From Botryllus schlosseri (lineage: Eukaryota), in the NCBI GenBank assembly GCA_051294905.1, contig CM119372.1:29266001-29330000 (forward strand): a stretch of 64,000 bases of DNA, in the 5' to 3' direction. The notes under the pieces are model-generated. The model saw only the letters and a list, made by a program, of their open reading frames with translations, was not told the DNA's origin and ran no database searches. Positions within the stretch are counted from its first letter, which is position 1, and each line of letters opens with the position of its first letter. Below are positions 2,111-25,287 of this stretch, piece after piece. Position numbers and translations under genes: made by a program.

Positions 2111-2309
2111 TCTGAATTCTTTTTTGTAGCAAGATATAATAACTTTGAAACGTTCCCCTATTTTGAATGGGATCTCATGATGCTCTTCCTTTTGCCACGC
2201 TCCGTCCAGTTGCGAATTCATCACTAGTACTTTGTCGTGAATTCTTGCGTTGAAGAACAACGCCTTAGTGCCATTTCCATTTTTTCCCGCCTGCAAACTG
2301 AATGAGAAC
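2111..2309 (-). CDS. Galectin CRD3 core exon (FSFSLQ...ALFFNARI...MNS...WQKEEH...PFKIGERF...); gene continues left
   Basis: atttcag acceptor, AGA|gtaagt donor, 199 nt, phase 2->0. No convincing following exon found in 1-2110. Confidence 0.9.
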
Positions 2310-3508
2310 CTGAAATATAACGAAATATGGATCATGCCGAGTTATAAATAACGAAACCAATATGGAAAGAGGGTTTTTATATTTTTGATTGACCAATAAA
2401 ATCAAATCAAAGAAAAGATTTGTAAATCTGGTTCTAGACACTTCGGCACATCATTAAGCTTTCACAGTCACACCAGTTGCGTGTTATTCATTTAGATGAG
2501 TGAGAGCATTTGGCACGTACGGACGAATTGGTATAGGTGAGTATGTGGAAATGCACGGGGAGGTGTCGCCTTTGTTTACGTGCAGAACCTCCTCCTAGTA
2601 AACTCATGAATGCAAATAAGACTTCATCGCTAAGCATAGGAATTCAACAATATGGATATTATGGTCTCATTTACATCAAGGTGTGAGGATGCGATGGTTC
2701 GATTACGTGTTAGAAAACTTCACTGATTTAATTTGCACCCTGCGATGAACTCACATTATAAAAACGTCTGCATATTATATATCCAATTATTGCTCTTACA
2801 GCAGGGGTTCCCAAACTTTTTATGGTGTCGAACCTATATTTCGACTTTCCGCTACCCCATCTTTTAATGTATGGCGTGCTCATTACTTAGGAAAATTGTC
2901 AGCACCTTCGCCCAAACCAACTCACCTGGGAAGCTGGCGACTGTGTGGCCTGGCCAGTAATAGCAATTCTGCAATTTTGTACTCGTCAACTCCCGTCTAT
3001 CAAGACTAGACAGTGCTGGCAAAAACTCTTTACATTCAACAGACAAAAATAAATTACATCTAGAATGTGCATAAATTCGTTGCTTATTATTCCCAACAGA
3101 CGCATCCCGTCACCACAACGCTTATAGCAGGTATAAGCTATACTTTCTGGCTACACTTTACTCCAGGGCTCACCAACGCGGTGCCCGCAGTTAACTGGTA
3201 GCCCGCGAGAACCAAATGAGTAACCCGCCTAGCCGCAGTAGTAAATGTTAAAACAAGAGATTTTAAGGTCGAAGCGGAGAAGAGTATGAGCAGCAATTGA
3301 ACATGCGTCACTCGACCCCTAGCAGCATACGAACAGAGGTTTCAACCAGGGCGTTGGTCGACTTCCTCGACGGGGAGATCGGCGCTTTTGTTGGCAGTGA
3401 AGCTACGCAACTGAGCCCTGAGCAGCTGGTGTGAGTCCGGGTGAGTTTTCATTTCGTGGCAAGGGGTGGAAGCCCTGCCCAAGTGCCCAGTGCTCTGCAT
3501 ATCTAAGT

Positions 3509-4166
3509 CAAGGGCGGCCAGCTCGTGACCCACGAAAAGGTTTTGAGGGGCCCGTGGTCGTTAGGTAATTTCCGAAATTAGGTATATTATCGGAATTGAA
3601 TGGCTCAGATTGTGAACGTGCAAGTTGCAAGGCCAACCAAAAATTTGAATTGGTCTGTACACGACACTTGAAATGTCGATTAATCCAGGGGCCAGTATTC
3701 GAACATTACAAGTAAGTAAAATATAGTATAAAAATTGTATTTCACGCTTCCCGCGATTTGATTATCACTTTATTTGTTGCTTTTGATATTGGTACTCCTC
3801 CTGAAAATGGAAAAAGCTGCCAATTCACCCTATTAACTATTATCGCAATTACGAGAGAAATTGTCCGCGCGTTTGCGCTCGCAGAAACATCGTCGACGAT
3901 GAAACCCAGGCACAAGATGATTGACATGTTGACATGTTAGCCGAAACCGTAGATAGGCTATCGATATGTCCAGGTGCCGAACAGTCCTGTCTTTAGAAAT
4001 TGAGCCCAGCGGGTGGTATACAGTAGACCAGCAATATGCTCAAGTAACAATATTATTGACCTAGTTCATTCACGAACTTTCGAGCCAGTGCGCGGGTGAC
4101 TGGTGGCCCGCGCACTGGCTCGTCATTTGCATGTGGTACTTTGGCCGGAAAGCTTGGCCACCCCTG
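3509..4166 (+). mobile_element. hAT non-autonomous element, family A
   Basis: CA(A/G)GGG.GGCCA ... TTGGCCACCCCTG termini. Internal similarity to 9072-9901 and 58280-58964. TSD degraded. Confidence 0.7.
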
Positions 4167-4221
4167 GCCAAGTCAAGAAATCCAACCGAGCACGGATAAA
4201 CCGTGGGAGTAACTGTTAGCC

Positions 4222-5111
4222 CATGGGTGGGCAAACTTTTGAGCTCGCGGGCCGCATTCAACATCTGAATTCATTCGCGGGCCGCACTCTACAAAATTGG
4301 GACTATACAACGAAACGCAATATTGGTATATGATTATATAGTGATGACATGGAGATAATATATATGCTTATATAAAACAAACCAAACATTACTTTGATTA
4401 TATCGTACAAGCGTGAGAAACAGTGGCGAGATTTCAAAGGCTGGTCAACCTCAATAACCAATTTGTCAAAACTATAGAGATGAAAGTCGGTATTGTCCCG
4501 ATTCTTATAACAGGATTAAAATTTAAATATGTGAGCAGCGATCTGTTCATAGATTTACCAATTCCACTTTTGGTACAGTTCCAGGACACACAATGCTGAC
4601 AGCATCATAACCATGTTAGCTTCAAACACCCTTCTACTATATGTGTAGATAAAATATTAATCCCCTATAATTATACGCATACAGAGAACGAATCTACCTA
4701 AGACACGCGCGAATCGTTTTTATAAGCACACCACCGAAATAATTAGAACTGGAGTGGTCAATCTGAAATCACACTGGTGATCCGAATTATGTCAATATCG
4801 TATAACGATTTCTACAGTTGTATGTAAATCACGCGAAGCGCGAAAAAAAAATCAGTTGAGCTCAGCTTCGCGTCCCCTTCAGATGCTTTCACGACCCGCA
4901 AGGAGGGCGCGCCCCTCCGTTTGACAACAACTGTCTTAGAATTATTATGGTTAAATATACTAAAAAAAGTTTAATCAAGTCCCTGCATTAATTCGATTTT
5001 TAGTACGCATTTCATCAATATTTTTAATAAGTTTCTTTAGACTCTCGCGGGCCGCACAGAACAGTGTTGAGGGCCGCATGCGGCCCGCGGGCCGTAGTTT
5101 GCCCACCCTTG
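4222..5111. mobile_element. hAT (Charlie-like) MITE
   Basis: TIR CATGGGTGGGCAAAC / GTTTGCCCACCCTTG. Perfect 8-bp TSD TGTTAGCC. GCGGGCCGCA subterminal motifs. Confidence 0.85.
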
Positions 5112-5786
5112 TGTTAGCCCGTAGCAATAATGAGTACCCAAGAAGCAGCTCTTGATTTCAAAAAGGTTGGTGACTGGTTGCTTTACTGTAAGGACAGGAC
5201 TGTAATTACAGTATTCCGCTGCTTAACAACTTCGTGGAAATCCAGATTTCCGAAATCATACAACATTTTCACAAAATTTTCGGCGGCTTCCAAACTCAGA
5301 ACAAAAATTAAAATGATTCAAAAGAAGGTGCAATTGGAACTAAAATAGCATGTCTTGATTTCAATGGAAATTAGGTTCTGTGGTTATTACAGTCATCGTC
5401 ACCAACTTTATTCACATATGTTCAGCATTATGCAACATTGAGTTTTATAAATAACCAAACGATCGATCAATCAAACAAACAACGAATAGACTAATCGATA
5501 TTCTGAGACAGTTATTGAGTCAATGTACTTGCACACATTCAAATGCATGTGCACTCATGTACAGTGGACAGCCAGGACGACGAAGTTTCGATTGCATGTC
5601 TCTCCAGAACGAAGTGCGATGATTTTGAAGAGAAATTGCCTTGTACGATTATTCTCACTGATTGTATCTGTCCTGGAATTCGTGTGAAATGTGATTCTAA
5701 CGAAGCTTACATAACGTATAGGGCCTATTAATCAATTAGATAAAATTTAAAAAACCAAGTATCAATGCAGTAACCGGGCAATGAGT

Positions 5787-6065
5787 GGCGAGATAGCGTA
5801 GTGGTATACCCTACAGCTGCAACACCACTGGTTTGCGGGTTCGAGTCCGACTGGGGTCGACTTCAAAATTTCTACCTAAGTGTGGGAGGTTCATCTAGGC
5901 TTCTCCTCGCAATCTCATCCGTCTATGCGGTGTCTTGTTGAAGCCTAGAAGTGGACCGTGCTAAAAGTCGGCAGCTACGGAACACAATTGAAGAAAATTG
6001 GCATGGTGTAAATGACTATAGTAGTCGACAAACACCATGAATACCACAAACAACAACAACAATAA
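5787..6065 (+). mobile_element. tRNA-derived SINE, near full length
   Basis: A box TAGCGTAGTGG, B box GGTTCGAGTCC, (CAA)n tail, degenerate ~17-bp flanking direct repeat. 3' parts recur in reverse at ~12229-12350, ~28345-28480 and ~29640-29770. Confidence 0.8.
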
Positions 6066-6205
6066 CCGTGCGATTAACCAATCAATTTTACCGGGCATAT
6101 TGGGTTATGTAGGGGGGCGTTCCATACCTTGTTTGCACCCCATGAGGGCGTTGGGTAAAAAGTTTGGGAAACACTGATCTATTGCATCGAGATAGATAGA
6201 TTTAC

Positions 6206-6294
6206 TGATTATTAGTTCCATTCGCTGTCGGTATTCCTTCCAGGTATATGCTCCGCACTGGTTTCATGGCAGTAAGACCGTAATTAGCTGAGAC
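6206..6294 (-). CDS. Galectin CRD3 first exon (VSANYGLTAMKPVRSIYLEGIPTANGTNN)
   Basis: ttacag acceptor, CA|gtaaat donor, 89 nt, phase 0->2. Paralogous to the 24536-24615 exon (AIKPGRKIYIDGIPT). Confidence 0.82.
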
Positions 6295-6766
6295 CTGTAA
6301 TTTGGAAAACAATGATTTTGATTTGTAAATGAACAAAACAGTACTGAAACATCGCCATAGTCAAGTCGGCGAATCAAAAATGTTTTAATTGAGCGTATAA
6401 ACGTTCTATCTGTTCACGATAATCCATGGATTACTACAATGCACGTATAGTCTATTCACGTTGTAGGAAATGTTTTCACATATTTACGTTCTAGATTGGC
6501 ATTGAATTTGGCCTGATATTTTTCATTTTTAGCCAGAGCCGGATTCGTATTTTTCTGCGATCAGATCCTGCGAGTTTTTATTTTCACGTTTCTCATGTTG
6601 CAATATTCAATAAATAACCTGAACCCACACCGTATAATCTACTGTTTTTGTAGTTAGCCTTGGAGTCGGATGGTAACGCGGCCGAGAACGCAAAACAACT
6701 CTACCGATGCATTTGAACGTAGAATATATGGTCTCAATATAAAAATTCGGATTTGGCATACTATAC

Positions 6767-6895
6767 CGGGGCCTTCCTCTCGAAATCCACGCATACAGCA
6801 GTCAGAGTGATGTTCCCCTTAATCAATAGATATTTCACATATTCGTAGTTCAGGCGGTGCTTGAATGTGAGCAATAATACGCCATCGAACATAAC
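6767..6895 (-). CDS. Galectin CRD2 third exon (VMFDGVLLLTFKHRLNYEYVKYLLIKGNITLTAV...)
   Basis: atgcag acceptor, CCG|gtatag donor, 129 nt, phase 0->0. FxHRL...LxIxG motif. Confidence 0.9.
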
Positions 6896-7734
6896 CTGCA
6901 TCGGAGAATAGAAAAATAGGAAAAATCGGAGTTAAAAGATGACGGAGACACACTCTACATCAGGGGCGGGCAACTTCTCCATCCGGCGGGCCGGATAGGG
7001 GAACATGAACATGAGGCGCGCCGGATTCCTGCATTTTTTTTATGAGTTTAGGGGAGCTCCACCCGGGGGAACGCGCCACAAATCCGTCCATCATACCCTG
7101 CACTACCTTTTGTACGGACACTTCAGAGACGCACACATTTCTGCAGTTGCGAACTATGTCTTGATTGGGCGACCGATTCACGGGCGAGCCCAAAACGGTG
7201 ATATGGATGTGGTCAAAAATCAGGGTATATTTGGCCTCTAGTCGCGCGAAGCGCAAATTTTTTTTTGCATAAATGAATGAATTTGATTGCTGATATTGGT
7301 GCGTGTATTAGCAAGTGGTTTCTTCCAAAATTTACAGCACGTATAATTACACTGGTCTACAAATTTCAACTTTTTTTTTCAGGTTCGGGTTTTGACAACT
7401 GATTTTGGCTAATTTTGGGGCACTGATTCCGAAAATGGCCTCAGATTTTCTCCATCACATCACGTTTTTGAGATATGAAATATCCCTAATTTGAAGAAAA
7501 AAATCAATTTTTGACCCCCCCTGTTTTCAAAACAAGGAAATCTGATGTAAAAAACTATGTTTTATCAGCAATAATCCAGCTTTAGTTAGCAAACAAGCAT
7601 TCTATATTATATTCAAACAAATTAGCGTTGTATTTATTAAAATTTCATGCCTTGGATTAAAAAATAAGCAGGCAAAAGAGCAACTAACAAAGCTGGTACA
7701 AGCGTGACATTTTATCGCAATGAACAATGAAAGA

Positions 7735-8600
7735 GGATTATCAGAACATCAAAACCGTTCTCGAAAAGTTGTAGTAGCATGACCATGGCTGGCTCATCTG
7801 TCTAGATTTGAAAATGGTGAACTTTTTGCTGGGGCTATACCGAATACCCATGTTTCCTATGCTACCGGGACAGCAGGGTCAAGGATAACCACTGGAACAA
7901 AGATGAGTGGCCTCCAAGGCTCACGTTGACGCCTGGAGACAACAATATCATACGTGATCAGTTTGCTGATATAAAAAAGATCCTCTTGCCTCCTCTTCAC
8001 TTCAAACTTGGTCTCATGAAACAATATGTAAAAGTTTTAGATTGTGAAGGGGGTGTTTTAAAGGATATATGTTATGCTTTTTCTGGTCTCAGTGAAGAGA
8101 CAAAAGAACTGGGATTTTCAATGGACCTCAAATTAGGCAATTGTTAAAGGATTAAAATCTTGTATATAATCAATGTTGCCATTCGAGGCTAGAGCTTGGA
8201 ATGTTTTCAGTGCTGTTTTTTGGGAAACAAAAAAGCAGAAAATTATAAAGATCTCTCAAGGGAACTACTGCTTTGTTATGAAGATTTGGGATGCAGGATG
8301 AGCATCAAAGTTAACGATTTGAAGAGCCATGCGGATGAGTTTAGACATAACCTTGGGAAAGTTAGTGAAGAACAGGGTGAAGGTTGCAGCCAAGATAATA
8401 AAATTATGGAGACACGTTATCAAGGTCGGTCGGATTTATGGATTCATTTATATCCCACACCAGTAAAAATCCGGTACGAGCAAGGACAAGGACACAGTTG
8501 CCACCTGTACCGGGATTTTCGTATGATAGCCGATTATTGATGGAGTTGGAAAGGAACAATTCCAGATGCTGTTCGTAAAAGAAAGTCCCACAACAGAGAA
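7735..8600 (+). pseudogene. Chapaev3-type transposase C-terminal half, frameshifted
   Basis: Motifs across frames: WLICLDLKMVNFLLG, YPCFLC, LLPPLHFKLGLMKQYVK, GIFNGPQIRQLL, FLGNKKAENY, LGCRMSIKV, NLGKVSEEQGE, METRYQGR, MIADY. Confidence 0.85.
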
Positions 8601-8772
8601 TTTTTTAGCTTATAAGTGAAGACTTCATATTTTATGAAAGCTCTTTTTTTACTGTTTCTGAACTCGCCCTGTCCAAGTCCCTGTCTTCAGAATTTCTGCA
8701 CTTTATTGGAATGTCTATGTGCATATTGTGTGAACTCTAGGCTGTAATTCAGATAATACCTTGCTACTGTCC

Positions 8773-10848
8773 CAGGGCTGTGGAGTCGGAGTCGGAGTCG
8801 GTGGAGTCGGAGTCGGAGTCGGGGTAATTTTCGCTTGATGGAGTCGGAGTCGGAGTCGGAGTCGTGAAAACTATAATAGCTGGAGTCGGAGTCGGAGTCG
8901 GAGTCGGTGGGAAAATACTGACTGGAGTCGGAGTCGGAGTTTGTGAGAATGACTTTGACTTCGACTCCGACTCCGACTCCGACTTCTCTATCATGAAAAC
9001 ATTTGCTTTCAAAGAATTTTCAATATAATTTTTATGTACCACCAATCACTGTTAATATTAACCATACAGATCAGGTGCGGCCAGCCCGTGGCACGCAGGC
9101 CAAATTTGGCACACGAGAAGGTTAGGTGTGGCCTGCGAGGTAATTCTCGAAATTATTTATGACATCAGGTACAATTGCAAGGCCAACCAAAATTTGGTTA
9201 GCATGACCGCAAAATTTGATGATGACGAAAACAACAGTTCTGAGGCATTGACGTATCCAGGGGTCAGCCACATTTATCCCAGATCTTCGTATATGACCAT
9301 GAAGTAGAATATTTCATAGCAGATTTATTTGACTTGAAATTTTCTCGGTACTTCGCATGATTCATTGTCACTAGATTTCTTGCATTCAGTATTGGAGCCC
9401 CCATTTGAAAATTATAAATACATATTCTTCACAGAATTGAGTCTAACTATATTCGCAATTAGGAGATACGGCTTCGCTTGTGCACTCGCAGCGAGATCGT
9501 CGACAAAACATTTGCACAAAATGATTGGGGCATGTTCACTGATACCGTCGATTTTGCTATGTCTAAACGTCGAATAATCCTGTCCTTGCCAAATGAGCCC
9601 AGTGGTATACAGATGCGACCCCCAATGTATGTTAGCGACATATTTATTGATATAGCTATAGCCTAATTCGGTCGTTATCTTGTAAAAAAATTTCGCGCTT
9701 CGCGCGACCAGGGCCTGATTACGCACTGCACAGTTGCATGACATAATGTTATCAATTTTAGAGCATAGTAATATAACTATTGTTTCATAATTCGGTTCGC
9801 TCCTATCGACGACTAAAAAAAGGTTATCAACATTCCCGTTGCCCGCGCAATGGTTCGTAAATCTCAGGTGTCCCTTTCGCCGAAAAAGTTGCCCACCCCT
9901 GATATAGATAAAAGACATTACTTGCAAATTACAACTCAGTTGCAGAGGGGAAGAAAATCGCAAGATGCGTTTTCGCGATGCAGTCAAAATTGATGCAATT
10001 TTTGGAATTATACCATGATACTCTGACAGAGAAAATGCATCGGCTGGTTTTGTAAAATTGTAAAAATGATGTAAATATGACCAAACGATGCTTCCCATTT
10101 GACAAAATTAAAAATATTTGTAGTGTAGCTTAGCTGTTTGGTTCGAACAAATGATTAAAAAAGACTGCAAGTCCCAATCCTTGAATACTTGATTAAGTAC
10201 ATGTAGACTAGACATAGGCTATGGTCTTTGACTACTTAACTAAATTCCATTTATGACCAATGTCTATTACTAGTAGCAAGAGTGTTTGTGCTTGTAATCA
10301 GGATAGTGTGTAATGACAAAATTAGTAAGTTCGATTTCTTTATTAGTTGCTGAGTCATACACAAGAGCTACACTTGGATTTTTTATCTACATTTTTATTA
10401 TACAGGATTGGATATCTTCCATATTTGAATGATTCATACATTTCAGGATATTAGAGAGTCCATGTTATAAAAACTTGAATAAGTAAGGATATTTAGCAAA
10501 TCTTTATTTCATGTTAATTGCGTAATGGATAATTCGAGCTGTGCCACAATGAAACAATTTAGCACGCCACAGTTAATCATATGTTTGCATATGTTTAATG
10601 GTTGTATGATAGTCATTCAACCGACAATGTGGCATATAATTTTCGAGGTGAATTGGTAATAATGCTGGAGTCGGAGTCGGAGTCGGGAGTCGGAGTCGGT
10701 ACGTTTAAAGACCCAGGAGTCGGAGTCGGAGTCGGAGTCGGTACGTTTAAAGACTCATGAGTCGGAGTCGGAGTCGGTATATTGAAAATGTGTGGAGTCG
10801 GAGTCGGAGCCGGAGTCGGTGGTAAAATTTACCGACTCCACAGCCCTG
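8773..10848. mobile_element. hAT element with (GGAGTC)n subterminal arrays
   Basis: TIR CAGGGCTGTGGAGTCGG / CCGACTCCACAGCCCTG. Perfect TSD TACTGTCC. A related remnant lies at ~51620-51770. Confidence 0.9.
9072..9901 (+). mobile_element. hAT family A copy, innermost layer of the nest
   Basis: CAGGTGCGGCCA ... TTGCCCACCCCTG. TSD ATACAGAT / ATATAGAT. Confidence 0.82.
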
Positions 10849-12566
10849 TACTGTCCTATCCACATGTTCGTCAACATAATGTAGCATTTAATTTTATTAT
10901 GGTTGCTCTTTTGCACGCCTATTTTTAATTCCGGGGCATAAAACCTTAATAAAGACAACTCAAATTTGTATGAATCTAACATCGAATGCTTGTTTGCTAA
11001 TTAAAGCTAGAATATTGCATGTAAAACAGTGTCTATTGCATCAGAATTCCTTGTTTTGACAACATAGGGGGGTCAAAAATTGAATTAAAAAAAAAATTAG
11101 GGATATTTCATATCTCAAAAACGTGATGTGATGGAGAAAATCTGAGGCCATTTTCGGATTCAGCGCCCCAAAATTAGCCAAAATCAATTGTCAAAACCCA
11201 AACCTGAAATTTTGTGTAGACCAGTGTTATAATTTTGAACATTGATCATGGCATAATAATATACATTCATGAGCTTATCGCAGATTATTCACTTCGGGCG
11301 GGTTCATTCTTGTTAATTACTTTGTTGAAAACTCCTGCAACCCCACGGCCTCGGGCTATTCTAGTGTATCTATGATACTGTATTCTCATAATCAAGAAAC
11401 GTACCGTAGTGACACTAATTTGCGCGAATATTTTTTAGTTTGAATCCATCTGCCCGAAAACATATTCCACTATTTATAAATATTACGAATATTCTCTAAA
11501 AATTAGGGAATGGCATGGCCCCATTCGCTCCTGGCTACGACAATGCGGTCAATGCGGTGGACATCAGTTGTATTAGAACGTCGCTTTGTCTTGCTAATGT
11601 TCATGCTCGAAAATGATGGCGCCTAAATGCCTGTAGACGGCGACGCGGGCATCATCATCACAAGACCGAAAACTGTCGGCGGGCCGCACAAAAACCCGAT
11701 CCGGCCTGCGGGCCGTATGTTGCCCGCCCCTGCTCTACATCAAAGTAAAGTACGATCCATCTCACGAAACAATATTTAGTTCGCTGAATTATGGTACATT
11801 GAGGAATTCAAATAACCGATTATTCCGTCGTTCTCAACGGTGGTGCCACGGCATGCTACAATTCAGCCGCCACCGACATTCCCCGCGAATTCTCCATACC
11901 CGATATATCAAATGACTTCAGTGCCTAATTCAGTTTTGTAAGATGCGTCGATTGATGGCATTGGCGGCCTCCGTGTGACAATGTGTTTGCATATACTTTA
12001 TGTCTTCCTCATTAACAGGAGAACCAACTCGCTTTAGAAGTGATCTCAAGCTTTGGAAACATAACTATTCACATTCCGATTGCTGCTGGTGACCTGGTAC
12101 TGCCGGTAAAATATAGGCTTGTAGCGGCAAAGGAATGCGAGAATTGAGAAGTATAGTTCATTGAATTATATCGGTTAACAAATTTCTCCACCGCTGAGGT
12201 TATTATCCCGGTTTATAGACACTATTTCGGTTGTTAATGTTTGAGGTATTCATGGTGTTTGTCGACTACGGTGGTCATCTAGACCAGGCCAATCTTTTTT
12301 AATTTTGTTCTGTAGCTGCCGACTTGCAGCACGGCCCACTTGTAGGCTAGATCAGTGGTTCTAAACGTTTTTGTCTTCACGGACGCCTTCAAGTTTTCGT
12401 TTAAAATTAGCTCAATTAACGTCTATAATATTCACACAAAAAAACAGCAACTGCAACCCAACGAACGCGGTCCAGTGGTCATTAATGTTTTGGAATGCAA
12501 ATATGACAAAAATAACACCGCCTGGCGATAAGTAATGAAGACTGTTCGAAACTGAGGATTATTCAC

Positions 12567-12783
12567 CTCGTAATCGCACTCACGACAGATGATAGCAAGC
12601 TTGAATGGTTTCCCGATTTTGAAAGAGAATTCGCATTCGCCAGGCAGATCTCTTTCCTCCTTCTGCCACTTCCCAGCTACTCTCGTGTTGCGAACAATAA
12701 CGTTTCCCGAGTCAAATCTCGGGTTGAAGTGAAACGCAATGTCATCACTTGCTTCTGGACCGGTTGTCAAATTGATTGCAAAC
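12567..12783 (-). CDS. Galectin CRD2 core exon, canonical binding site (DIAFHFNPRF...VRN...WQKEER)
   Basis: aattcag acceptor, GAG|gtgaat donor, 217 nt, phase 2->0. Full HxNxR, N and WxxExR signature. Confidence 0.95.
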
Positions 12784-13273
12784 CTGAATTAAATATCGAT
12801 ATTACCCTAGTATTGCTATGGGCATATGCTACACCTAGACAGGGAATGTTGTGTTTCCAGATATCTTAGAGGCAAAGATTCTAGCCGCTAGAACTCAACA
12901 TTGAAATGTAATTGGAAATTCCACATGGTCATATTGGGTAATTTTTGAATGCTCGACTCGACTTGAAGCTTAGCAGTCAGTCAGTCAGTCTATTTGGCGC
13001 AGTCCTAACGCAGAGCACATAAGTTACAGCTCATCCCGACAACGATAGGCTGCATACGGAGACATTTTCGCAGTAATATAGCAATGATTGTTACCTGCTG
13101 GTTATGTGGACTAATTGTTTCATGCCTACCCTATTATGAACTTATCTAACTTGTACATGAAGGTGATTTATCAATTTCTGAGATGCCAACTTATAGCACG
13201 ACGGCCAACTTTCGCTCCAGACATTTTGTAATATACCGCTTATGCAGATCAGATGGCGAGGAAGAGCCTAGAT

Positions 13274-14115
13274 CAGGGGTGGCCGACCTGCGCTCCTGCG
13301 GCCGCATGAGGTCGCACAAGGTAATTTGTGCTGCCGTGGACACGCAATTCAATTAGTATGTGTTCGCGGCCGTCGACACGAAAATTAAATTGACGACTTA
13401 TCTCCTGAAATTTTGAGGGATTTTAGTTCTTTTTGATGTTTACTTCGCGCTACGCGCGATTTAATGCGACTTCATTTTTCAATGTTAGTATAGGAACGCC
13501 CTTTGCCATATGCGTCCCACAGAACAGGTGAGAATAGCAAAGGAACGTGATGTGCGCTGTATGGAAATACCAACTCGGAGTCGTGTGCTCCTCACGAACG
13601 AAAGCTGTTTCTGGTACCTTTGGGTCATTCCAATATCTTTCCACTACCGACAATCCTGATGGGAGGTCAGGAAATTACAGCATGCAACAAATTGACTAAT
13701 AACAGTTGGCCCACCCAACATGCATCATGAATTTATCATCTATGACTTGTCCAACACCCCATCCACCAACTCTACCGGTGAATCTGATCACAAGGACTAG
13801 AACGGATAAATGTTAACTATCGTAATATGTGAAACTACTAACATTAAATACGAAATTGATTCGTTAATCTGATATTTTTTAGCGCTTCGCGCAACTATCT
13901 GTTACCATAACGTGGCAACTTGCTATTACGGTATGTATGGTAGGTCCATATCAATGAATAGATTAGTCCAGAGCTCACAGGAAATGGACATGGACATTTT
14001 AACATGGCTATTGGGCGTCCAGCTAGTTCATAAGAAGTATACTATGGAATGCGGCCGTAGACCACATGAGTAATCGAAATGCGGCCGTGAATAGCATAAG
14101 AGTTGCCCACCCCTG
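13274..14115. mobile_element. hAT MITE
   Basis: CAGGGGTGGCC ... GCCCACCCCTG. Perfect TSD GCCTAGAT. Confidence 0.85.
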
Positions 14116-14421
14116 GCCTAGATAAACCTCTAATTCTTAGGAAATGATTCTGGTGTCAATCTCGGTCGGACTTGAACCATGGATCCGTATGTTCTCCAGT
14201 GGTGCAACATACCGCGTCATTACTCGCCAATATGTGCCGCGAACTATTTTCTCTTTGAGGGTGCCGTGAGGTCGAAAAAGTTAAGAACCACATCTTAACG
14301 ATTGAATTATATGTATGCCACCTGGAATCTGACATAATTATACTCTCTACAGTGTAATTACAAGCGAATAATATACATTAGAGACGTAGGCTACACATGA
14401 AAATAAATTAGTTTTACGCAC

Positions 14422-14516
14422 CTCCCCTCCTGCGGCATTCCTTCCACTCGAATTATTTGTCCAGGAACCATAGGAGGAAGGCCCATCAAAAATGGATTCG
14501 GCAGTTCCAAGTCCGA
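14422..14516 (-). CDS. Galectin CRD2 first exon (SDLELPNPFLMGLPPMVPGQIIRVEGMPQEG)
   Basis: catcgtag acceptor, AG|gtgcgt donor, 95 nt, phase 0->2. PxPF...PGxxIxVxGxP motif. Confidence 0.87.
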
Positions 14517-14638
14517 CTACGATGATGTAATAGTATTGTTAAAAGTAGAAATTGAAAGCATCTCGATTTGATGTGTAATAAAATATTTGACCACACACAC
14601 ACACACACTACTTTTTGATAAAGTTTGATCAGGTAGAT

Positions 14639-15372
14639 CAGTGGTTCCCAACCTTTTTGGGATGCAGGAGCCGCATTTCAAACTTCGGAGTACCTATGGA
14701 GCCGCAAGAAAACACTCGAGTAGGCTACTTTTACCGAAAATTTAATGGTAGCTATAGTCTACCTCTGGATCTCATCATCGAGTAAAGTAAAAAGCATGCA
14801 TATTGCACATACAACGTCTATAGATTCTGTATCGGTTATTTTAGCATTGATAGACGCAGATTGGCGAGTGCTATACATTGAAATAAACTGAAAATGCATA
14901 TCATTACTGCAACATACTATTATGTCATTTTGCGATAGTTCTTCAACTTCATGCATTCCTGCACTTAATGCACTAGTTTGCCGGGATTATATGTTAAGTA
15001 ATATTGCCATTTATAATTGACTATATGGACCGTTATTTTGATGTTAGTAAAACAGTGTCGCAATTTATTCTTCACAGAGACGATGTGTAAAGGTCTATGA
15101 CCAGTAAAACTCAAAATATATCCTTGTCTGACGGGTATTCATCCATGTGATTGACGCTAGTCTGCAAGAATTCTCTTTCCCAGTTTTCAGAAGCGGCCTT
15201 GGGCGGCTTTAGACAAACTAATATCCCTCATTTAAGCATTCATATACAAAAGTTGACTATAACTATTCATAGAAACAAACAGCAACTGTCGTGTATTATA
15301 TTTTTGTGGCATATTTAGAGGTTAATCAGAGCGGCAGGGAGGCTACCTTGGAGCCGCGGTTGGTAACCACTG
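14639..15372. mobile_element. hAT MITE
   Basis: CAGTGGTTCCCAACC / GGTTGGTAACCACTG. TSD AGGTAGAT / ATGCAGAT. GGAGCCGC motifs. Confidence 0.7.
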
Positions 15373-15773
15373 ATGCAGATTGTAGATTACAATGTATTTA
15401 TTGAGCTATGGATTCACCGCATCGAATAAGGAGGACAATATTTGCCATAGTGTGTGGATTATATGGAACTCTTCCGAAAGACGATATGAAACCCAGCATG
15501 ACCATTGAGTTAAAACGTTCGAGTCGTCTTATGAGTCTGGACATGATTTCTAATGGTTTGACCAATGTTGTAACTCGGATAAACAAGTTTGCGCAGACGA
15601 AATAGTTGCTTTTATCACATCGATTGCGTTTGTTTTCTTGCTATTCATTATTGGTGCTATGGTATAGCACCAGATCTCTGATGTTGTGTCATCATTGAAA
15701 GAATATCGGATACTCCGTCCAACTTCTCAGCTGCATACCTCACAAGTATCATCCTGTCTATACTGGTGTGAAT

Positions 15774-17232
15774 CAGAGTTGGATCAATTGTAATTTGTAA
15801 TTGTAATTGAATGTAATAATTACATTTTTCAATGTAATTGTAATGTAATTGTAATTGAAGCATTTTTATTTTGTGTCATTGTAATTGTAATTGTAATTTG
15901 ACAAAAATTTTGCTCAATTACAATTTCAATTACATTAAATTGCTATTGAGACCTGACAAGCACAACATAAAATAATTGACTTATAATGCATTCTCTTTAA
16001 ATGTCGACAAGGAATTTGATGGATCCATTTGCGGAAGCCCTTGACTGCGCCCTTGCGGTCGAATTTTTTATTGATTTTTACCGCTATGCTGGCCTCGGCT
16101 GCCATTGTCTACAATTATTAGATTACTAACCAACGGATGGATTCTCAACACGTGACTCACGATTGAATACGCCGAGAAGCGAACTGCTGAGCCGGCTAAA
16201 AGCAGCAGAATTGATAGTCCCATAGCTGGCGATCCAAGCGTCAAAATTTGATATGTATGGTCCTAATCGGAAGCTAGTGTCGCACTGATTCCGCAATAAA
16301 AGTATATTTCCAGGCAATGGTACCATCCCAAAATAGTCGTGAAAGTCTGGGAATCGGCATTGTTCTGAACAATCGCTGGGCGTAATTGGTCATTGTTGTG
16401 GTCATGCTGCTGCGGCGCTCTCACTTTTCAAAACAGTCGGCCTTAAACGGCTATTTTGGAGCAGATACATTGCCCTGACGAGATTTTAATTTGTATTTTC
16501 GGAATTAGTGCATCGATAGCGTACGATAAAGACCAGATGCATCAAATTTAGACGCTTGGATCGCCAGCTCTAGGACTACAAGGTTTGCTGCTTTTAGCCG
16601 GCTCTGCAGTACGTTTATCGGTGCATTCATCCGTGACTCACATCTTGCGCATCTATCCGTGGGTTGGCAATCTACAATACGATTTCAGATCACGATGCTG
16701 CATCGTTACTTCGTCTGGCTAACTAACCAGATCACTGGATATTATATAACGTCTTATCTGACAAAGCACGGTTTTGTTTTTACTCCTCATCCTAATTCCT
16801 ACGTCCCTCGATAAAAATGATATTATTTCTTTAATTATATACTATATATGCAAATCCAACACTTGCATATATTATAATACTTTTTTCAACGACATACTGC
16901 ATATAGTTCGAAAACGTTTTTTCTTTTTATTAATTACGGGGTATTTGCGCATCATGAATGAAACATGAATACTTAAATTGTTGTTAATTACGACGCTACG
17001 GTTGTCAAGGAGCACGGTTGAATTTATGATTATTCAATTACATGTTCAACAGCAGCAATTGTAATTGTAATTGTAATGTAATTGAAGCATGCAAGTAGTA
17101 ATTGTAATTGTAATTGTAATTTGATATTTTTAGCATGGAGTAATTGTAATTGTAATGTAATTGAAAGATGCATGAAAGTAATTGTAATTGTAATTGTAAT
17201 TGAACTGAAATAATGTAATTGATCCAACTCTG
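15774..17232. mobile_element. hAT element with (GTAATT)n subterminal arrays
   Basis: TIR CAGAGTTGGATCAATT / AATTGATCCAACTCTG. Perfect TSD GTGTGAAT. Confidence 0.9.
16119..16674. mobile_element. Foldback (long-TIR) MITE nested in 15774-17232
   Basis: ~220-bp imperfect inverted arms, e.g. gagccggctaaaagcagc / gctgcttttagccggctc and gctggcgatccaagcgtc / gacgcttggatcgccagc. TA at both ends. Confidence 0.7.
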
Positions 17233-17375
17233 GTGTGAATACGATCAAGTCTACGTGAAGCATGATCATTAGAGGCGCGTCGGAATGACAGGGGAGAATC
17301 GCCGACAGTTGTAAACAAACAATATATAGAAAAATTGCCCAAAATATAAGGGAACAATGAGTTTTGATATCATAC

Positions 17376-17504
17376 TTGAGGCTGTAGCTCTGAATCCAAA
17401 CCGACCGCGGATAAAACTACTTTCCCATCAATGAGGATATTCGTGATCTCTTCGTAGCTCATGCAATACGGAAATTCATAGACGACGTGACGATTGACAG
17501 TGAT
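17376..17504 (-). CDS. Galectin CRD1 third exon (ITVNRHVVYEFPY...ILIDGKVVLSAV...)
   Basis: gtcacag acceptor, CAA|gtatga donor, 129 nt, phase 0->0. Matches the VxVNG...F...IxIxGxV C-terminal strands. Confidence 0.85.
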
Positions 17505-18275
17505 CTGTGACCGAAAAATAGTTATGTAAATGGATGAAATTACTGTTATATACATATATGATCAAACAAATATGATAATATATCAGTATAGTGGAGATAC
17601 ATATTTTTATAATATACGCATTGTGTAAAGAAGGCTTTCGTGGTGACACAATTCAGTGTGACACAATTCAATAGAAATTTGCGTTTAACTATGTTGAACG
17701 CATCCGATTGAGAGAAATGCAACATTAATATTTATATTCTTTATTCACAGTAAAACTGGCAAATGCACACATAATCCGGGGAACAACCTGCCCCCAAAGG
17801 AAAATGGCAAGATTGGAGTAAATATTTAAAATTTCACTAAGGCAGTCAAATTATTATTCCTATGCAATGCATAACGGTCAGATTACAGAATTGCGGTGGA
17901 TGAAGAATTGGCAAGAGTTGCAGAGCAGAGATAGAGATGATTGAAAACGAAAAATAGAAAATACAGAAATTATGCTGTAATTTTCGAGTACAAGTAGCCT
18001 ACACGCGCACATGTGCAATTTTACTCCTAGGCTTACATGTAATCGTGAATAATCGTGATTAAGGTTCCATAGTAATCGAAATCGACTACTTCAAGATTTC
18101 GTAATCGCGCCATTAAGAAGTAATCGAAATCACAATCGTCTACATTGATGAAGTAATCACCCAATGCCAGGTACAGTGTACAAGAGTTGCTATATAGCAC
18201 TCTCGCAACCCTGCTCATTGAAATGGTACGCCTAATGCTAACACAAAATAATCCTGAATAACGTATTGCACCAAC

Positions 18276-18471
18276 CACGAATGCCTTTTCTTCACAGGCA
18301 ACACCAATGTTGAATGCTTTTCCGACTTCGAATGGGAAATCCTCGGTTATTCGCCGCTCTTGTTTACACGATCCACCCAAACGCGAATACATTACTACTT
18401 GCTCCTTTGCAAATATCGGATTAAAGTGGATAGCAATATTTTGCTCATCATCCATCAAATCGATTTCGAAG
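18276..18471 (-). CDS. Galectin CRD1 core exon (FEIDL...IAIHFNPIF...FPFEVGKAFNIGVACEEKAFV)
   Basis: tattacag acceptor, 196 nt, phase 2->0. IAxHFNP and FPFxxG motifs. Donor gttggt chosen by alignment with the other two core exons. Confidence 0.88.
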
Positions 18472-20185
18472 CTGTAATATAAGTATTGAATAGAAACTTC
18501 AGTAGTACGTTCATGGTCTATTTGTTAGATGAGTTGAAAAAATAACACACAACGTCGAAAACAGGGGTAGCCTAATTAGCCATCTTAGATGCGCATGTAT
18601 ATTTCCACTACGTAAAAAGTGAAGTAGAAGAAGTAGGCTACCTCTTCCGTAATGACAGTTGATGTAAAATGTTGATAAGCACAACAGAAGCTGGTGAGGT
18701 GATTAAATCACCTTTTCCTCGACTTTCACCCTGTTTGCAAAATCTTTACGGAAACTTGAAATTGTTCAAGCTCCCAAGAGTCCGAACAAAAAATGCTGAA
18801 ATGTCCGGGATTTTGAAGGCTTTTTTTTTAAATAAATTAACGTAAACGATATTATTCAGGGGCAGATTGCTACATGACATTTTCGTGCAGTACGTGGCAA
18901 ACGCGATTCGCGCGTGTGTTAGGTAGCCTCTCTCTCTGTATGTGAAGAGTCTTTTGGGGGGTCAGAACTTTAATATAAATTTTAAATATATCGTGTAAGT
19001 TATGAATATATTATTAAAATGCATATTCAACCCCCATTGCCATAAACGTTTTCACTGCTATACTTGTGAGTGAGGCTTCTTGGCCGGGTCACACCAAAAA
19101 CGCATAAACTGGTATCACCGGCTATCCTGCTAGGAGCCCATCATTCACGGATAGCATGAGGAGAAAAACATTAGGGCAGTATCGCATCTCCGTCGTCAAA
19201 GTGTAATGATGACGCAGGCGAAAAATAACATCGACTCCCTCTCCCGCTCTCTCTCTTTCTTTCTCTCTCGTTTTTCTCTCTCTCGATCCCTATCTATTTT
19301 GTGACATCCTGTCCTTACTATTATAGTCAAACGATATTGAAATCGCCAAACGTACTAAACTAAAAGACGCAGACATATTAACTACTAGATATTTCTTCAC
19401 TGGTGTCGTCATGCCGTAATGGCACGCCGAAATAGCTGTTTCTATAAATCATGCGTATTTTTCCTAGTGGGAGGTTATCCAATAATCAGAACACCCAGCT
19501 AAATTTTATCGCGCCTAGTGCGAAAAGAATTTGAGAAATGTTCCATAAATTTTCCAAAAACACTGCATAATTTATGTTCATTCACGAAATAATTTTGAGT
19601 CCCCTTCGAGCTTCTCGGCAGTTACGGGCGAGGTAGTTACGGTCCTGGTGAAGAGGTAAAGCCATCTTTTTAGTTGGGTTTAGGTGGCCTGGTTTATGGA
19701 ACATAATTTCTGACAGCAATATGAGATACATACCCAGTGAAATATAGACTCACGGCAGAGGCTGAAAGAGCGCCAATTCCGAAAGACCGAATTTTGAAGC
19801 TAGCAAGAGAACAAGGCAATTATACTGAGCTACACACAACCTGGAGTGCAGCAACCAAGACCATCTCGATAATATGTCTTAATAGAACATAATTATCTTG
19901 GGGTTTTAAAAGTGGCATGTTTATCATTGTTTCAAATACTGACATTGAATAAACATCATGTCTGGTAAATTTATCCTCACATCCACTTGGCAGTTTGTTT
20001 TAAGAACTTTCAATTTTAAAATGAAATTAATTTGCTTCATAATATAGTTTAATCGCTTCGCTCGGTCCGCTAACATATTCCCTGTCTCTCATCGGGTCCG
20101 TCGGAAAGAATATTAGGCCACCCCTGTGCTGATGAGTGACCGTTAGCTGGAAAACGCAAATCAGGTGATCAAAAGGTAATTTCTG

Positions 20186-20971
20186 CAGGATTGTAATGAC
20201 TCGAGTGATGACTCGACTCGAGTCCCGATTTTCTGATGACTCGACTTGACACGAGTCATTTTCTCAAAATACGGAAATGACTCGACTCGACTCGAGTCAA
20301 TCTGTGCATTGACTCGACTTGGACTTGGACACAGAAGAAGAAGAATAGAATAGACCAAATCCAAAGATATTCGTATTATATATTTTGAGTATTATGTCAC
20401 TTGTACATGACGGATTTGTATTGCCCTTTTGGCCTTTTCTCTTTTCCTCCGTTTTTATTGAAAATTCCGACCTGAGTGTGTCACGTACTTGTACTTGTTA
20501 CTGATGGTTTACTATTTTGAGAAATTATCTATAGAAATTATTTCCTATTTAATTTTTTGATGAAGGTATGCTGTATGATACAATCATCATTTCATTTACG
20601 ATGCATTGCTTCATGGATCGCCGTATGCTTGACACCTATGTTGTATAGGTATGATAAAGAAGCATATTGGACTGGTTCATGGGTATAGATTTGAATGTAA
20701 CATTTTTGCATCATTTTTTTTCTGGTCCGCAAGCGAATATAGTGTTTGAATTTGATCTCCGAGCCAAATTCAGTTTAATATATTTGGTTGACACCGATGC
20801 GTTTCATGTTTCTAGGATCGTTGCCGAGAAAAGAGAAAGCGATTCTCACATCATCTCATCGCGGAATTTGGTGACTAGAGTTGGGCAAAATCGAGTGATC
20901 GAGTGATTCGATATCGAATGAGAGTGTAGTAGGCTTCGAGTCGAGTCGAGTATCATTCATTACAACGCCAG
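20186..20971. mobile_element. Degraded hAT element with (GACTC/GAGTC)n arrays
   Basis: CAGGATTGTAATGACTCGAG start, related to the 22870 and 49225 family. Right end and TSD decayed. Confidence 0.6.
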
Positions 20972-21514
20972 AATAGTATGAATGATATCGACATTTCCAA
21001 TTAGTACCTTTTAGGTGGCAAAAGGAAAATATTGCCAATTTTATATCATATGAGTAGGGCGATTTTTTTTTGACCTAAAAAACGGAAGATTTTGACCTAA
21101 AAAATCTAAATTTTGACTTTTTTTGACCTAAAAAAATGAAATTTGACCAAATTTTGACCTCACGTATGCAAATTAGGTGTTGTCGCACATACTGTTAAAA
21201 TTGTACTACTTATCTTCATTTCTGGTTGGAACTGTCTGTCCTTACAAAGTAGATTGGCCTGAAAAAACGTTTTTGGCTCAAAAACTGAGAAAGTTTTACA
21301 TGAAAATTTTTTATTTTACGAAATGTGGCCCTATGAAGAATACTGGTAGTTACATGACGTATTATGGTGGAAATAATTAAAATTTGTTGTCGTACAACGA
21401 AAGATACTTTCCTATACATTCTCGGGTAGAAAGTGTCTGTCCTTACTAAGTAGTTTGCCAAGAATGCTGCTGGTGACACACCGTGTTGCTTCATTCTGAC
21501 AATGTTGTCTATAT

Positions 21515-23866
21515 CAGTGGTTCTCAACCTTTTTCACCTCGCGGACCGGTAAAATTTTAAAAAATATTTCGCGGACCGGTGGACTTTCAGAAATTGAAAT
21601 CAACCCAAAATGTAGAGTATGAAGCCGTTTTTTGCAAGTATATGGTGCTAGAGAGTGACATTTCAGGGTTTTGATCGTAATTAATTACGTTCATGATGGT
21701 ATCCATGAGATTTTTCGGTAGTGAGTCTGCTGCGTCAAGGTAAAATTGCCTCTCCCAGATAAACGTGCTATACCTCGGAGAGTCATTTACAGTCTTTCGC
21801 CCCGTATGCCCTGGATTTAACCGACCATGTCAACTCGAATAATATTATTCTCTTCGACAATATCGTGAGAAGAAGTGTTTGGGATTCGAACCAAGCACCT
21901 TGTCGTGCTACCTTGCTGAATGCTGATTGCTCACTACCACCAGACGTAACCTACTCTGGCTACTACGGATACAATGCGCCGCACGAAAAAACCTGGCAAA
22001 AACAGCTATACCTAGCCAATGGCCATACACAAAACCAGTGCCGAAAAGGCACTTCGTCAGTCAACCCCCCCGGAAAACGTTAGTCTTGGGCCCCAAAGCT
22101 AGACGGATGCTCTCACCACTGCGTGAGAGCACGTCCGTTCTACTAAGTGCCGGCAGAGAGTCTACGTTGCCTATCGCTAGAAGCGTGGAAATTTTCTATA
22201 AGTCATGACCGAATCCGTCAATAATATTGGTAATTGCGTACATATTGCTATATTTTAATTTATCCTATCAGAATCAGATTCTCCGGTAGAGCTGAGTGAG
22301 GTGTCGTCTTGGAAAATTTATGGCATCTAATCAAATTAAACATATTCGGGCTGGACTGTTGCAATAATTACTTTGTTGCATGTCATTAATTCATGACCTA
22401 CTGTCTGTTATATGGTGAATAGATATTGAAATCGCCCAAGCGTACTAAGCTGAAAGAAGCACACGATTCCAAATTGTTATTTCTTCACTGGAAAATAACT
22501 TTCTCTGTGGGATGGCGTTTTTCCTGTGGGGTACAGATTGCCAGTACAGGGAAATTCGGCTCCAGTCATTTAGGTGCCTATGGACAATTTGACCTGGGCC
22601 TATTTATATCGCTGTTTGGTCTACAAAGGAAAGTCATTTTCGGCCAAGATTTTGTCGCTGCCAAATGTTTGGCACACTTTTCGCAGTCCTGTATTAGCCC
22701 AAACTTCATCATGCATTGGTGCGTCGTGGCGCGGCAATGGCTGACGCCGAAAATGCCTGATCACTCGATATCCAATTTATTTAGTGACACCAAATCGGAC
22801 AAAGTGTGAAATTTTGTTTTTAACAGTTGTATAAAGTTTCTACTAAAATAATCTTTCGTTTATGTTCATCAGGGTTGTAACCGAGTCACAAGACTCCGAG
22901 TCACAAGTCAATCTGCTTTTTATAGTTTTGACTCGAGTCAAGTCGAGTCATTTCAATTCACCACCGAGTCAAGTCCGAGTCCAAGTCAGCGAGCAGAGGG
23001 TCGAGTCCGAATCATGGAATTATGACTCGAGTCCAAGTCCAAGTCATTGTATAGACTGCTCAGTTTCCAGTTAAAGTCTTGGTAAACCCACTTTTATTAA
23101 CTTTGTTTGGTGATATCGAATGATTCGCATTTATAATATACCAAATTACCAATGTTCCTCACTTTTAGCAGTTTCTGGTCGCATATTCAAGTACCAGTAC
23201 CAAGAGACGAAATCCCAATAGTGTGTTGGCTTTGGAATTACAATGAAATGCCGGTCCTGGCCGTCTGAGTGTCGAGTCAATGACTTGGATCGAGTCATGC
23301 GCAATGACTCGAGTCCAAGTCGAGTCAATACACATATTGACTCGAGTCGAGTCGAGTCATTTCCGTAATTTGGAAAAAATGACTAGAGTCAAGTCGAGTC
23401 ATCAGAAATTCGTGACTCGAGTCGGACTCGAGTCGAGTCATGACTTGAGTCATTACAACCCTGATGTTCATTCACGAAATAACTTTGGGCTCCTTCAAGC
23501 TCGGCCCCTATCAATTAGGGGTTGCAGTGTGGCAGTTATTATAGTTACTATACTGCACAAAATGAATGAATGGAAAACGAATCATCGTGCAAACTGCGCA
23601 TTTTAGCAAGTAAGCCTGTTCTGGTCGCCCACATGTCGTCAAATGACACGGCTTGAACTTCAAGTCAAATGTTTCCAGACCTAATGCTACCTCACGACGT
23701 TCTCAATCAGTTTAAATTTTAATGCTTTATTGATTTTATCAATGGACAAGCCTTCAACATATTGCACCTTGAAATTAAGGTATAAAATTGTAGAATGCCT
23801 GGCGGACCGGCAGTAAAGTCGTCGCGGACCGGCACCAGTCCGCGGACCGGCGGTTGAGAACCACTG
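21515..23866 (+). mobile_element. hAT element nested in 21055-24235
   Basis: CAGTGGTTCTCAACC / GGTTGAGAACCACTG. Perfect TSD GTCTATAT. GCGGACCGG motifs. Second copy at 53165-53925. Confidence 0.88.
22870..23463 (+). mobile_element. hAT MITE with (GAGTC)n arrays
   Basis: CAGGGTTGTAA / TTACAACCCTG. Perfect TSD ATGTTCAT. Same family as 49225-49727. Confidence 0.9.
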
Positions 23867-24535
23867 GTCTATATCACAATATTTCGGCTTGTGCTTCTTG
23901 ATATAAGAACCATGCAATGTCCAAGCAGTCTTGCTTCAGTTACGATATTGCGGTACGTTGACCATAAAACCATGTCACCATTTGTTTCATTTGACCGTTT
24001 ATGATTCACAATGAGCCAGCGATGGGCCGTTTACAACGGTAGGCCTATAAAGTAGGCTACAAGCTGTAAAATATCAAATGATAAAGTTCACCGACAGCAC
24101 AAAATCTACGATACAAACGAAATGCAGAGGTCAAAAAATGTTTGACTTTGTAAACAATTTTGACAAATATTGACCTAACGCTACAATTTTGACCTAATTT
24201 TGACTTTTTTTGACATGTCAAAAAAAATCGCCCTACATATGAGATAATTTGGTATTTTCCAACCATGCATTGTATACTTCATTTGAAGTTTTAACAATGC
24301 TGTGGGTTGACCACGACTTCACAGAAAGGCCATTTGCACCCACGTGTGTAGGTTTTGTGTCAAGCAGTAGTGAGTTTTCCTCAAAACCACTATGATCAAG
24401 GTTGCAATATACTAATTAGCGAGGAAATTGTGCAATCCACATCTGCCCCATAAAATCAGTAGCTCACGGCATATCAGCAAATATAGTAGCTAGTTTTGAA
24501 TTTCAATAAAGTGTATACGAGTTTAAATTACGAAC

Positions 24536-24615
24536 CTTTCTCCGGTCGGGATCCCATCAATGTAGATTTTACGTCCTGGCTTAATGGCGTCTGTCGCAAT
24601 AGATAGTGGGACCAG
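24536..24615 (-). CDS. Galectin CRD1 first exon (LVPLSIATDAIKPGRKIYIDGIPTGE)
   Basis: ttttcacaacag acceptor, AG|gttcgt donor, 80 nt, phase 0->2. KPGxxIxIxGxP galectin motif. Confidence 0.85.
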
Positions 24616-25263
24616 CTGTTGTGAAAATAAGATGATGCACTTTCCGATTGGTACAGAGTACAATCATTAAATTATAAAATTGGAATTGGAAAATACAGAA
24701 CAACATTTATCAGCTGTAAGATATACGAACATATGATCAAAGTTTCGATTACTGGTACTGAGTACAAGTAGAAGTTGTGCCAAATGTACTACTGAATTAC
24801 AAGTGTGGAAGTACCAATTTTGGGACATGTCAAAACTACTTCTGGTACAAATACGACACGTCGTAGAGGTATTTACCTAAATAATTACACGAAGATCGAG
24901 ATGAGGTGCCACATACTTTTCTCTGTCGTGCGCTAGGGCAACTTTCATATTTGCTTTTTAAGCTACGCCTGCGGGATTCATACAAAATGAAAATAGGCGA
25001 GATTCTCTGGGTTACGATCTGTTACTGTCAAGCAGGGTCTGTTTCACCAATGTGTCATATGGCGATTTCATTCATGAAACGAATTCGAATCTATATGCAA
25101 CTTTGTTCTACTTGACGACAGTAGACACGTGAGTGAGAATAAAAGAATTAGACAAAGCCAAATTGGGTGTAAGTGAAAGCACTTTGTCGCCGAGTAGGTC
25201 CTACCACTGGAGCTACAATATTGAAAGATATTAATAAACAACCGAACACATAAAATACCATAC

Positions 25264-25287
25264 CGGTTCGAAGATTGTAGCAGCCAT
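25264..25287 (-). CDS. Galectin coding exon 1 (start; MAATIFEP)
   Basis: ATG preceded by in-frame TGA/TAA. Donor CCG|gtatgg, phase 0. Acceptor tttcttcag 32 nt upstream (exon top 25319). Joins the next exon to give IFEP|LVPL, resembling the galectin N-terminal IYNPxVPF strand. Confidence 0.7.

Follow-up and report, generated by a model that had tools for sequence, protein, structure and literature searches.

Tunicate galectins are described with two carbohydrate-recognition domains (CRDs) in the accessible portion of PMC10343441, which credits Ciona with three two-CRD genes, two of which, LGALS6 and LGALS6-like, use a long middle exon in both CRDs. The same portion describes larger members of the family from other animals, namely lamprey LOC116947959 with four CRDs and the sea cucumber AjGal1 with three. 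Galactose is contacted by His, Asn, Arg, Asn, Trp and Glu, according to the available part of PMC7053492. Galectins lack signal peptides and act both in the cytosol and extracellularly (PMC3396283, accessible part), and those of Ciona are found in haemocytes and are induced by inflammation (PMC10343441, accessible part). Here we describe a putative galectin gene on the minus strand of a 64,000-nucleotide (nt) stretch of the Botryllus schlosseri genome (assembly GCA_051294905.1, contig CM119372.1, positions 29,266,001 to 29,330,000; hereafter the window). As far as the DNA itself can tell, the locus is real and probably encodes a functional galectin. With moderate confidence, we read it as one multi-CRD gene giving one mRNA, whose product would carry one full galactose site flanked by partner CRDs that bind weakly or not at all.

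An earlier note on this DNA, made from the letters alone, had proposed a galectin of nine exons with GT-AG junctions, consistent phases and a stop-free frame of 386 codons, and we rebuilt this model exactly from the sequence. The exons, E1 to E9, span 25287 to 2111 on the minus strand and sum to 1158 nt, i.e. 386 codons with no stop, as follows:

25264..25287, minus strand: E1, presumed start exon of 8 codons (24 nt) with its ATG at 25287; the weakest exon of the model
24536..24615, minus strand: E2, first exon of CRD1, phase 0 to 2, 80 nt; top of 149 candidates
18276..18471, minus strand: E3, middle exon of CRD1, long S3-F4 type, 196 nt; PF00337 E 1.5e-10
17376..17504, minus strand: E4, last exon of CRD1, 43 codons, 129 nt; top of 61 candidates
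14422..14516, minus strand: E5, short linker plus first exon of CRD2, 95 nt; top of 63 candidates, margin 2.4 bits
12567..12783, minus strand: E6, middle exon of CRD2, long type, 217 nt; PF00337 E 3.1e-20, matches to galectins in PDB
6767..6895, minus strand: E7, last exon of CRD2, 43 codons with Pro at the end, 129 nt; top of 139 candidates
6295..6766, minus strand: intron 7, between CRD2 and CRD3, 472 nt, with a single AATAAA at 6582
6206..6294, minus strand: E8, first exon of CRD3, 89 nt; top of 85 candidates, margin 2.4 bits
2111..2309, minus strand: E9, middle exon of CRD3, long type, donor GTAAGT, 199 nt; PF00337 E 6.2e-13
1..2110, minus strand: beginning of intron 9; the last exon of CRD3 and the stop lie outside the window

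All nine exons are followed by a GT donor and all eight acceptors are AG, and the start phases from E1 to E9 are 0, 0, 2, 0, 0, 2, 0, 0 and 2. After the 8-codon E1, a cassette of three exons (A-B-C) with phases 0/2/0 runs as A-B-C, A-B-C, A-B, colinear and on one strand. Three exons per CRD at these intron positions are typical of the family; the phases are 0/2/0 in all three units and the middle exons correspond to Pfam positions 29-95. The spliced model holds CRD1 and CRD2 whole and two-thirds of CRD3. The three middle exons (196, 217 and 199 nt) all stop within the strand that precedes the V-x-V/F-N/D-G motif and are thus of the long (S3-F4) type in all CRDs. No separate linker exon was detected, as the earlier note had stated.

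The Pfam check that the note had suggested was run exon by exon. The PF00337 cut-off was passed by E3, E6, E9 and E7, while E4 stayed under it (E 0.003) and E5 and E8 gave no match when taken alone. A CRD profile, for which 150 of 506 database CRDs were used, found three domains in the spliced model, with E values of 4e-29, 5e-40 and 7e-20. When the 2544 six-frame fragments of the window were searched with the same profile, five scored at E<1e-4, these being E3, E4, E6, E7 and E9, and the next best had an E value of 0.85. E6 also matched 119 PDB sequences, galectin-9 and galectin-8 best and galectin-4 and galectin-3 among the others. For the small exons, all AG..GT candidates within each exon's interval were ranked by profile score. 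E4 and E7 rank first by more than 24 bits; E2, E5 and E8 rank first as well, by margins of only 2.4-4.5 bits, and an alternative acceptor of E2 at 24639, which makes the exon 8 codons longer, ties in score. E8 shares 10 of 16 residues with the first exon of CRD1, E4 and E7 have the same length of 129 nt, and E1 and E7 both end in Pro at a phase-0 donor. An assembly duplication was considered and ruled out, the three CRDs being merely 29-34% identical to one another (66-71% protein divergence). Taken as spliceable sequence, the exon model is confirmed.

The three CRDs differ at the galactose site, which the earlier note had missed: only CRD2 has a complete one. In galectin-1 numbering, CRD2 (E6) keeps all eight site residues in the canonical order His-Asn-Arg / Val-Asn / Trp-Glu-Arg. 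CRD1 (E3) keeps five of the eight, with Arg48 changed to Ile, Asn61 to Tyr and Trp68 to Cys, and CRD3 (E9) keeps six, with His44 changed to Phe and Arg73 to His, position 73 being variable in relatives. Since only the CRD2 site is intact, this changes how the protein would work. Five or fewer site residues were found in 7 of 144 database domains and Trp was present in all 144, in a set that was chosen by likeness to CRD2 and is biased toward intact sites. The fold seems preserved throughout, hydrophobic core columns being kept at 31 of 32 positions in CRD1, 32 of 32 in CRD2 and 20 of 21 in CRD3. A Cys in strand F3 is common to all three CRDs; it occurs in 31 of 72 C-terminal and 9 of 72 N-terminal database CRDs and is not diagnostic. 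No signal peptide or membrane segment was evident, the highest 19-residue hydropathy mean being 1.31 and the highest 9-residue mean within the first 40 residues 1.49, by a crude test that depends on a correct E1. Neutral change was simulated, with substitutions only, in 1000 trials per level; frame and splice sites survived in 430 at 1%, in 189 at 2%, in 19 at 5% and in none at 10% change. Neutral change of 5-10% thus rarely leaves the frame intact, indicating that the divergence of the CRDs and the losses at their sites arose under selection on frame and fold; long-term decay of the gene is excluded.

At the 5' end, E1 is the single convincing start exon in the locus. Ten ATG mini-exons that have good donors lie in the 10 kb before E2, and of these E1 alone ends in Pro. 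An in-frame stop lies 4 codons upstream of its ATG; the region near 25320 is possibly a 5' untranslated region (UTR) or a trans-splice acceptor. At the other end, the gene leaves the window at the left edge, as had been noted. The third exon of CRD3 was not found in 1-2110, where the best of 52 candidates gained 5.9 bits, compared with 30 and 38 bits for the true last exons. Upstream of the gene, the CRD profile found no additional CRD in 25.3-64 kb. No gene was recognised in these 39 kb (25300-64000), in which 87 stop-to-stop fragments of at least 68 amino acids (aa) gave no Pfam match above cut-off, a search that small exons would escape, and Rfam matches numbered zero. This upstream stretch is dense in dispersed repeats. 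It includes at 54392-54907 (minus strand) an open frame of 171 codons with a Ser-rich start and no Pfam match, which by eye gives the impression of a decayed first open reading frame (ORF) of a retroelement. A decayed, frameshifted, transposon-like frame lies in intron 6 of the galectin gene at 7724-8612 (plus strand); its best match is an uncharacterized protein of Clavelina lepadiformis, residues 213-488, at 78% identity, and it belongs to no Pfam family. Short-repeat and palindromic elements lie in the introns at 8780-8986, 10667-10820, 15786-15898, 16119-16674 and 17057-17202.

Judged from the splice signals and frame, CRD1, CRD2 and CRD3 are likely to lie on one transcript. Intron 7, with its 472 nt, offers two ATG..GT candidates of phase 0, both upstream of its sole AATAAA and none downstream, so that a stand-alone CRD3 gene would be left without an obvious first exon. 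Intron 4 has two ATG mini-exons with good donors in 2.9 kb, which is the background rate of about 1 per kb. The join between CRD2 and CRD3 is better supported than that between CRD1 and CRD2.

Under the reading that we favour, an old tandem duplication of the three-exon CRD cassette would have produced one galectin gene, and splicing would yield a soluble protein without signal peptide, in which short linkers join three or more CRDs. CRD2, to judge from its residues, would bind beta-galactosides through its canonical site. CRD1, in which the galactose-holding Arg, Asn and Trp are gone, would keep the fold and most likely serve as a spacer, an oligomerisation module or a protein-binding module, while the site of CRD3 would be weakened or altered. 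The product may thus be a tandem-repeat galectin with unequal domains that acts as a glycan-sensing adaptor or weak cross-linker, and not as a trivalent cross-linker. Its role would likely lie in the immunity of haemocytes, pharynx or gut, with expression that is low or else confined to induced animals or to a narrow stage.

Several observations weigh against this reading. The donors of the two CRD-ending exons, E4 and E7 (17370-17375 and 6761-6766, minus strand), read through to Val and then to a stop (GTATGA and GTATAG), an immediate in-frame stop being found at 13 of the 429 donor-like sites in the window. The stop stands at +4 to +6 in both CRD-ending donors and in none of the other four phase-0 donors. 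The donor of E7 is moreover a weak match to the consensus (5/9). No orthologue of the same design was found: the best full-length identities were 27-36%, and there was no tunicate among the named proteins of 30 that were looked up.

The RNA data are the remaining point. Reads of four runs, tied to the window solely by one species label, were mapped to 1-20000 at 95% likeness, a stretch that leaves E1 and E2 outside; the runs were a bulk raw-read run (6% read), a single-cell raw-read run (3% read) and two sets of contigs that were presumed to come from RNA. Contigs indicate presence only, and some reads were dropped in mapping. None of the 13 joints listed in the four runs connected exon to exon, and depth was zero in all four for the bins 2002-2668 (E9), 12674-13340 (half of E6) and 18010-18676 (E3). 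At 1 read per kilobase per million (RPKM), about 10 reads of the bulk run would be expected on those exon parts; exon expression was thus below about 0.3 RPKM in that run, provided that the alleles are at least 95% alike. The earlier note had held that a lack of reads across the 17376/14516 and 6767/6294 joins would speak against the model. No read crosses an exon join in any of the four runs, yet the exons themselves are uncovered, and the result does not bear cleanly on how they are joined. The note's claim of a multi-CRD galectin stands in so far as three CRD units share a single open frame when spliced, and it lacks junction reads. Either these samples contain little or no transcript of the gene, or its reads were too divergent or were filtered. 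What RNA did map fell on intronic repeats, mostly continuing into other loci. A sequence-word search of 12500-18500 listed no run on record as RNA; in 19 runs guessed as RNA the shared fraction of words is 0.06-0.12, and in one run whose kind is not on record it is 0.52. The shares of the 19 runs are uninformative on the exons, because the two of them that were mapped fall on repeats. Other copies of the intronic repeats are common in RNA runs and draw most mapped reads, and can mimic expression of the locus.

The stop behind the donor of E4 would fit a pair of tandem genes, the first a single-CRD, non-binding galectin-related gene (E1-E4, closing with Val-stop) and the second a two-CRD galectin of the ordinary kind (CRD2 plus CRD3) that has its first exon in intron 4 and resembles Ciona LGALS6 in its two long middle exons. 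Intron 4 (2859 nt) holds five AATAAA, about three being the number for its length at a rate of 1.06 per kb. It also has two ATG mini-exons, at 15752 and 14956, whose donors are good. For Ciona, the accessible portion of PMC10343441 describes two-CRD genes that stand in tandem and have two long middle exons. The two mini-exons, however, occur at chance frequency and bear no likeness to E1, and repeat makes up much of the intron. E4 moreover matches E7 in length and phase, and it is the E7-E8 join that is better supported. We regard two such genes as unlikely. Splitting the locus further, into three single-CRD genes in tandem, would agree with the clean stops with which both CRD-ending exons can close and with the 29-34% identity of the CRDs. 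It would require the 472-nt gap of intron 7 to hold a 3' UTR, a polyadenylation site, a promoter and a start exon; no ATG mini-exon follows its AATAAA, and a start at the Met inside E8 would remove what appears to be the first strand of the domain. This arrangement is highly improbable. A third account of the stop-bearing donors, present in 2 of 2 CRD-ending exons compared with 13 of 429 donor-like sites, is that these exons are composite and either splice on or read into the stop followed by intronic polyadenylation, giving nested proteins of one, two and three or more CRDs. An AATAAA lies 445 nt past E4 (16931) and another 185 nt past E7 (6582). Against this, the observation of the stops was partly post hoc, GTATGA also serves as an ordinary donor, AATAAA has a background of 1.06 per kb, and the single-cell raw-read run showed no pile of molecule ends at these places, the exons there being likewise uncovered. 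Nested products are, in our view, quite unlikely. The same grade of doubt applies to the extension by which the locus would be a valency switch, with intronic polyadenylation yielding a non-binding one-CRD decoy, a two-CRD form with one site or a form of at least three CRDs, and with the stop-bearing donors recording the fusion of tandem single-CRD copies.

The absence of exon signal in all four RNA runs could also mean that the gene is intact in sequence and was recently silenced or is becoming a pseudogene, so that no protein is made. Five site residues have been lost, four of which appear to lie one base from the canonical codon, and all three CRDs sit on long end branches of the tree described below (0.97-1.28 vs a median of 0.47); at 1-2% neutral change, 43% and 19% of trials still had an unbroken frame and splice sites. 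However, the frame, 17 splice dinucleotides and the core are intact over 23 kb crowded with repeat insertions, which makes a neutral decay of at least 5% unlikely, and CRD2 was wholly spared by the losses. The four runs, in turn, are a partial sample of tissues, stages and immune states, linked to the window by species label only. We consider recent silencing quite unlikely and retain one expressed multi-CRD gene as the preferred reading.

How uncommon such a gene would be among chordates had been overstated in the earlier note, since lamprey, frog and fish proteins with at least three CRDs exist. By profile, three CRDs are present in Xenopus tropicalis galectin 9 (NP_001120550.1) and in proteins of Ranitomeya, Colossoma and Pholidichthys, and predicted proteins of eel, catfish and sucker have 8 to 21. 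At least three CRDs were found in 65 of the best 150 of 829 matches to E6, which is not a frequency, as this ranking favours multi-domain proteins. The giant teleost predictions, with 11 to 21 CRDs by profile, come from Anguilla (3214 aa), Ictalurus (3272 aa), Synaphobranchus, Myxocyprinus (lgals4) and Gymnothorax and are mostly labelled uncharacterized. A literature search listed no paper on them, and they may surprise more than the present gene. The linkers, which had been called very short, are indeed short and fall in about the shortest quarter, but are not exceptional among database junctions. Counted from profile position 136 to position 14, they span 21 and 15 residues, and of 367 database junctions, in which related proteins were counted separately, 98 have linkers of 22 residues or fewer and 65 of 15 or fewer. 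A four-CRD protein of Lingula has linkers of 14/14/14, and those of Holothuria and Xenopus are 30-31 residues long. Among the database entries we also came across WP_411025726.1, a 100-aa galectin labelled 'Salmonella sp.' on a 302-nt contig, which falls into a 90%-identity cluster with a Holothuria galectin and is most likely host sequence mislabelled as bacterial.

In searches for an orthologue, E6 alone gave 2 matches among 35 candidates and the three middle exons together 9 among 386, all vertebrate or insect. Metagenome contigs yielded 49 loci with no close relative over the whole exon, and the Atlas search with E3 returned generic galectin clusters only. In a tree of 62 CRDs, taken from 24 selected proteins and the window, none of the supported (starred) clades contained a window CRD and the bootstrap was not yet stable; the tree thus gives no ground to claim a lineage-specific duplication or an orthologue. 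The titles and abstract openings that literature searches listed describe no tunicate galectin of three or more CRDs, most subscription papers being outside reach. For Botrylloides diegensis several galectin gene names are listed, and domain counts are absent from the portion consulted of PMC12212465.

Among the tunicate galectins found, the present gene would be the first to exceed two CRDs, with its sites in the order dead, live, weak. If its expression follows the model, it closes a small gap, as an independent expansion to at least three CRDs from long-middle-exon units only in the sister group of vertebrates, the tunicates. Through its unequal sites the protein would further lend itself to testing whether additional CRDs raise valency or act as non-binding adaptors. 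The picture of the family is unchanged, because multi-CRD galectins arose many times, chordates included.

The known systems closest to this locus include Ciona intestinalis LGALS6 and LGALS6-like (CiLgals-b type), likewise from a tunicate, with three exons per CRD and a long S3-F4 middle exon throughout, which the accessible portion of PMC10343441 calls an exception among deuterostomes. Those genes have two CRDs, whereas at least three are present here, and no Ciona sequence was among our matches; the likeness described here is one of design. AjGal1, lamprey LOC116947959 and Xenopus galectin 9 share with our locus more than two CRDs per chain without a long linker. In the lamprey gene, however, long and short middle exons alternate (PMC10343441, accessible portion), whereas all are long here, and the CRDs of Xenopus galectin 9 are close copies of one another that form a supported clade, unlike the window CRDs at 29-34% identity. 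The bivalve proteins CvGal1 and CvGal2 are likewise multi-CRD, with short linkers and long middle exons, in the available parts of PMC7053492 and PMC10343441. The four oyster CRDs are very similar and keep most binding residues (PMC7053492, available part), whereas the CRD1 site is broken here; in the bivalve quadruple type the first CRD of scallop has two exons (PMC10343441, accessible portion), CRD1 here has three, and a fourth CRD was not seen in the window. Galectin-related proteins of the LGALSL type have kept the fold and lost galactose binding, as is predicted for CRD1, but they are single-CRD proteins with a short middle exon. Galectin-8 provides a precedent for a tandem galectin that binds both glycans and a protein partner (NDP52), the corresponding partner of CRD1 being hypothetical. 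Together, multi-CRD galectins are known in other animals, and what is of interest here is the tunicate setting, the design with long middle exons only, the unequal sites and the stop-bearing donors.

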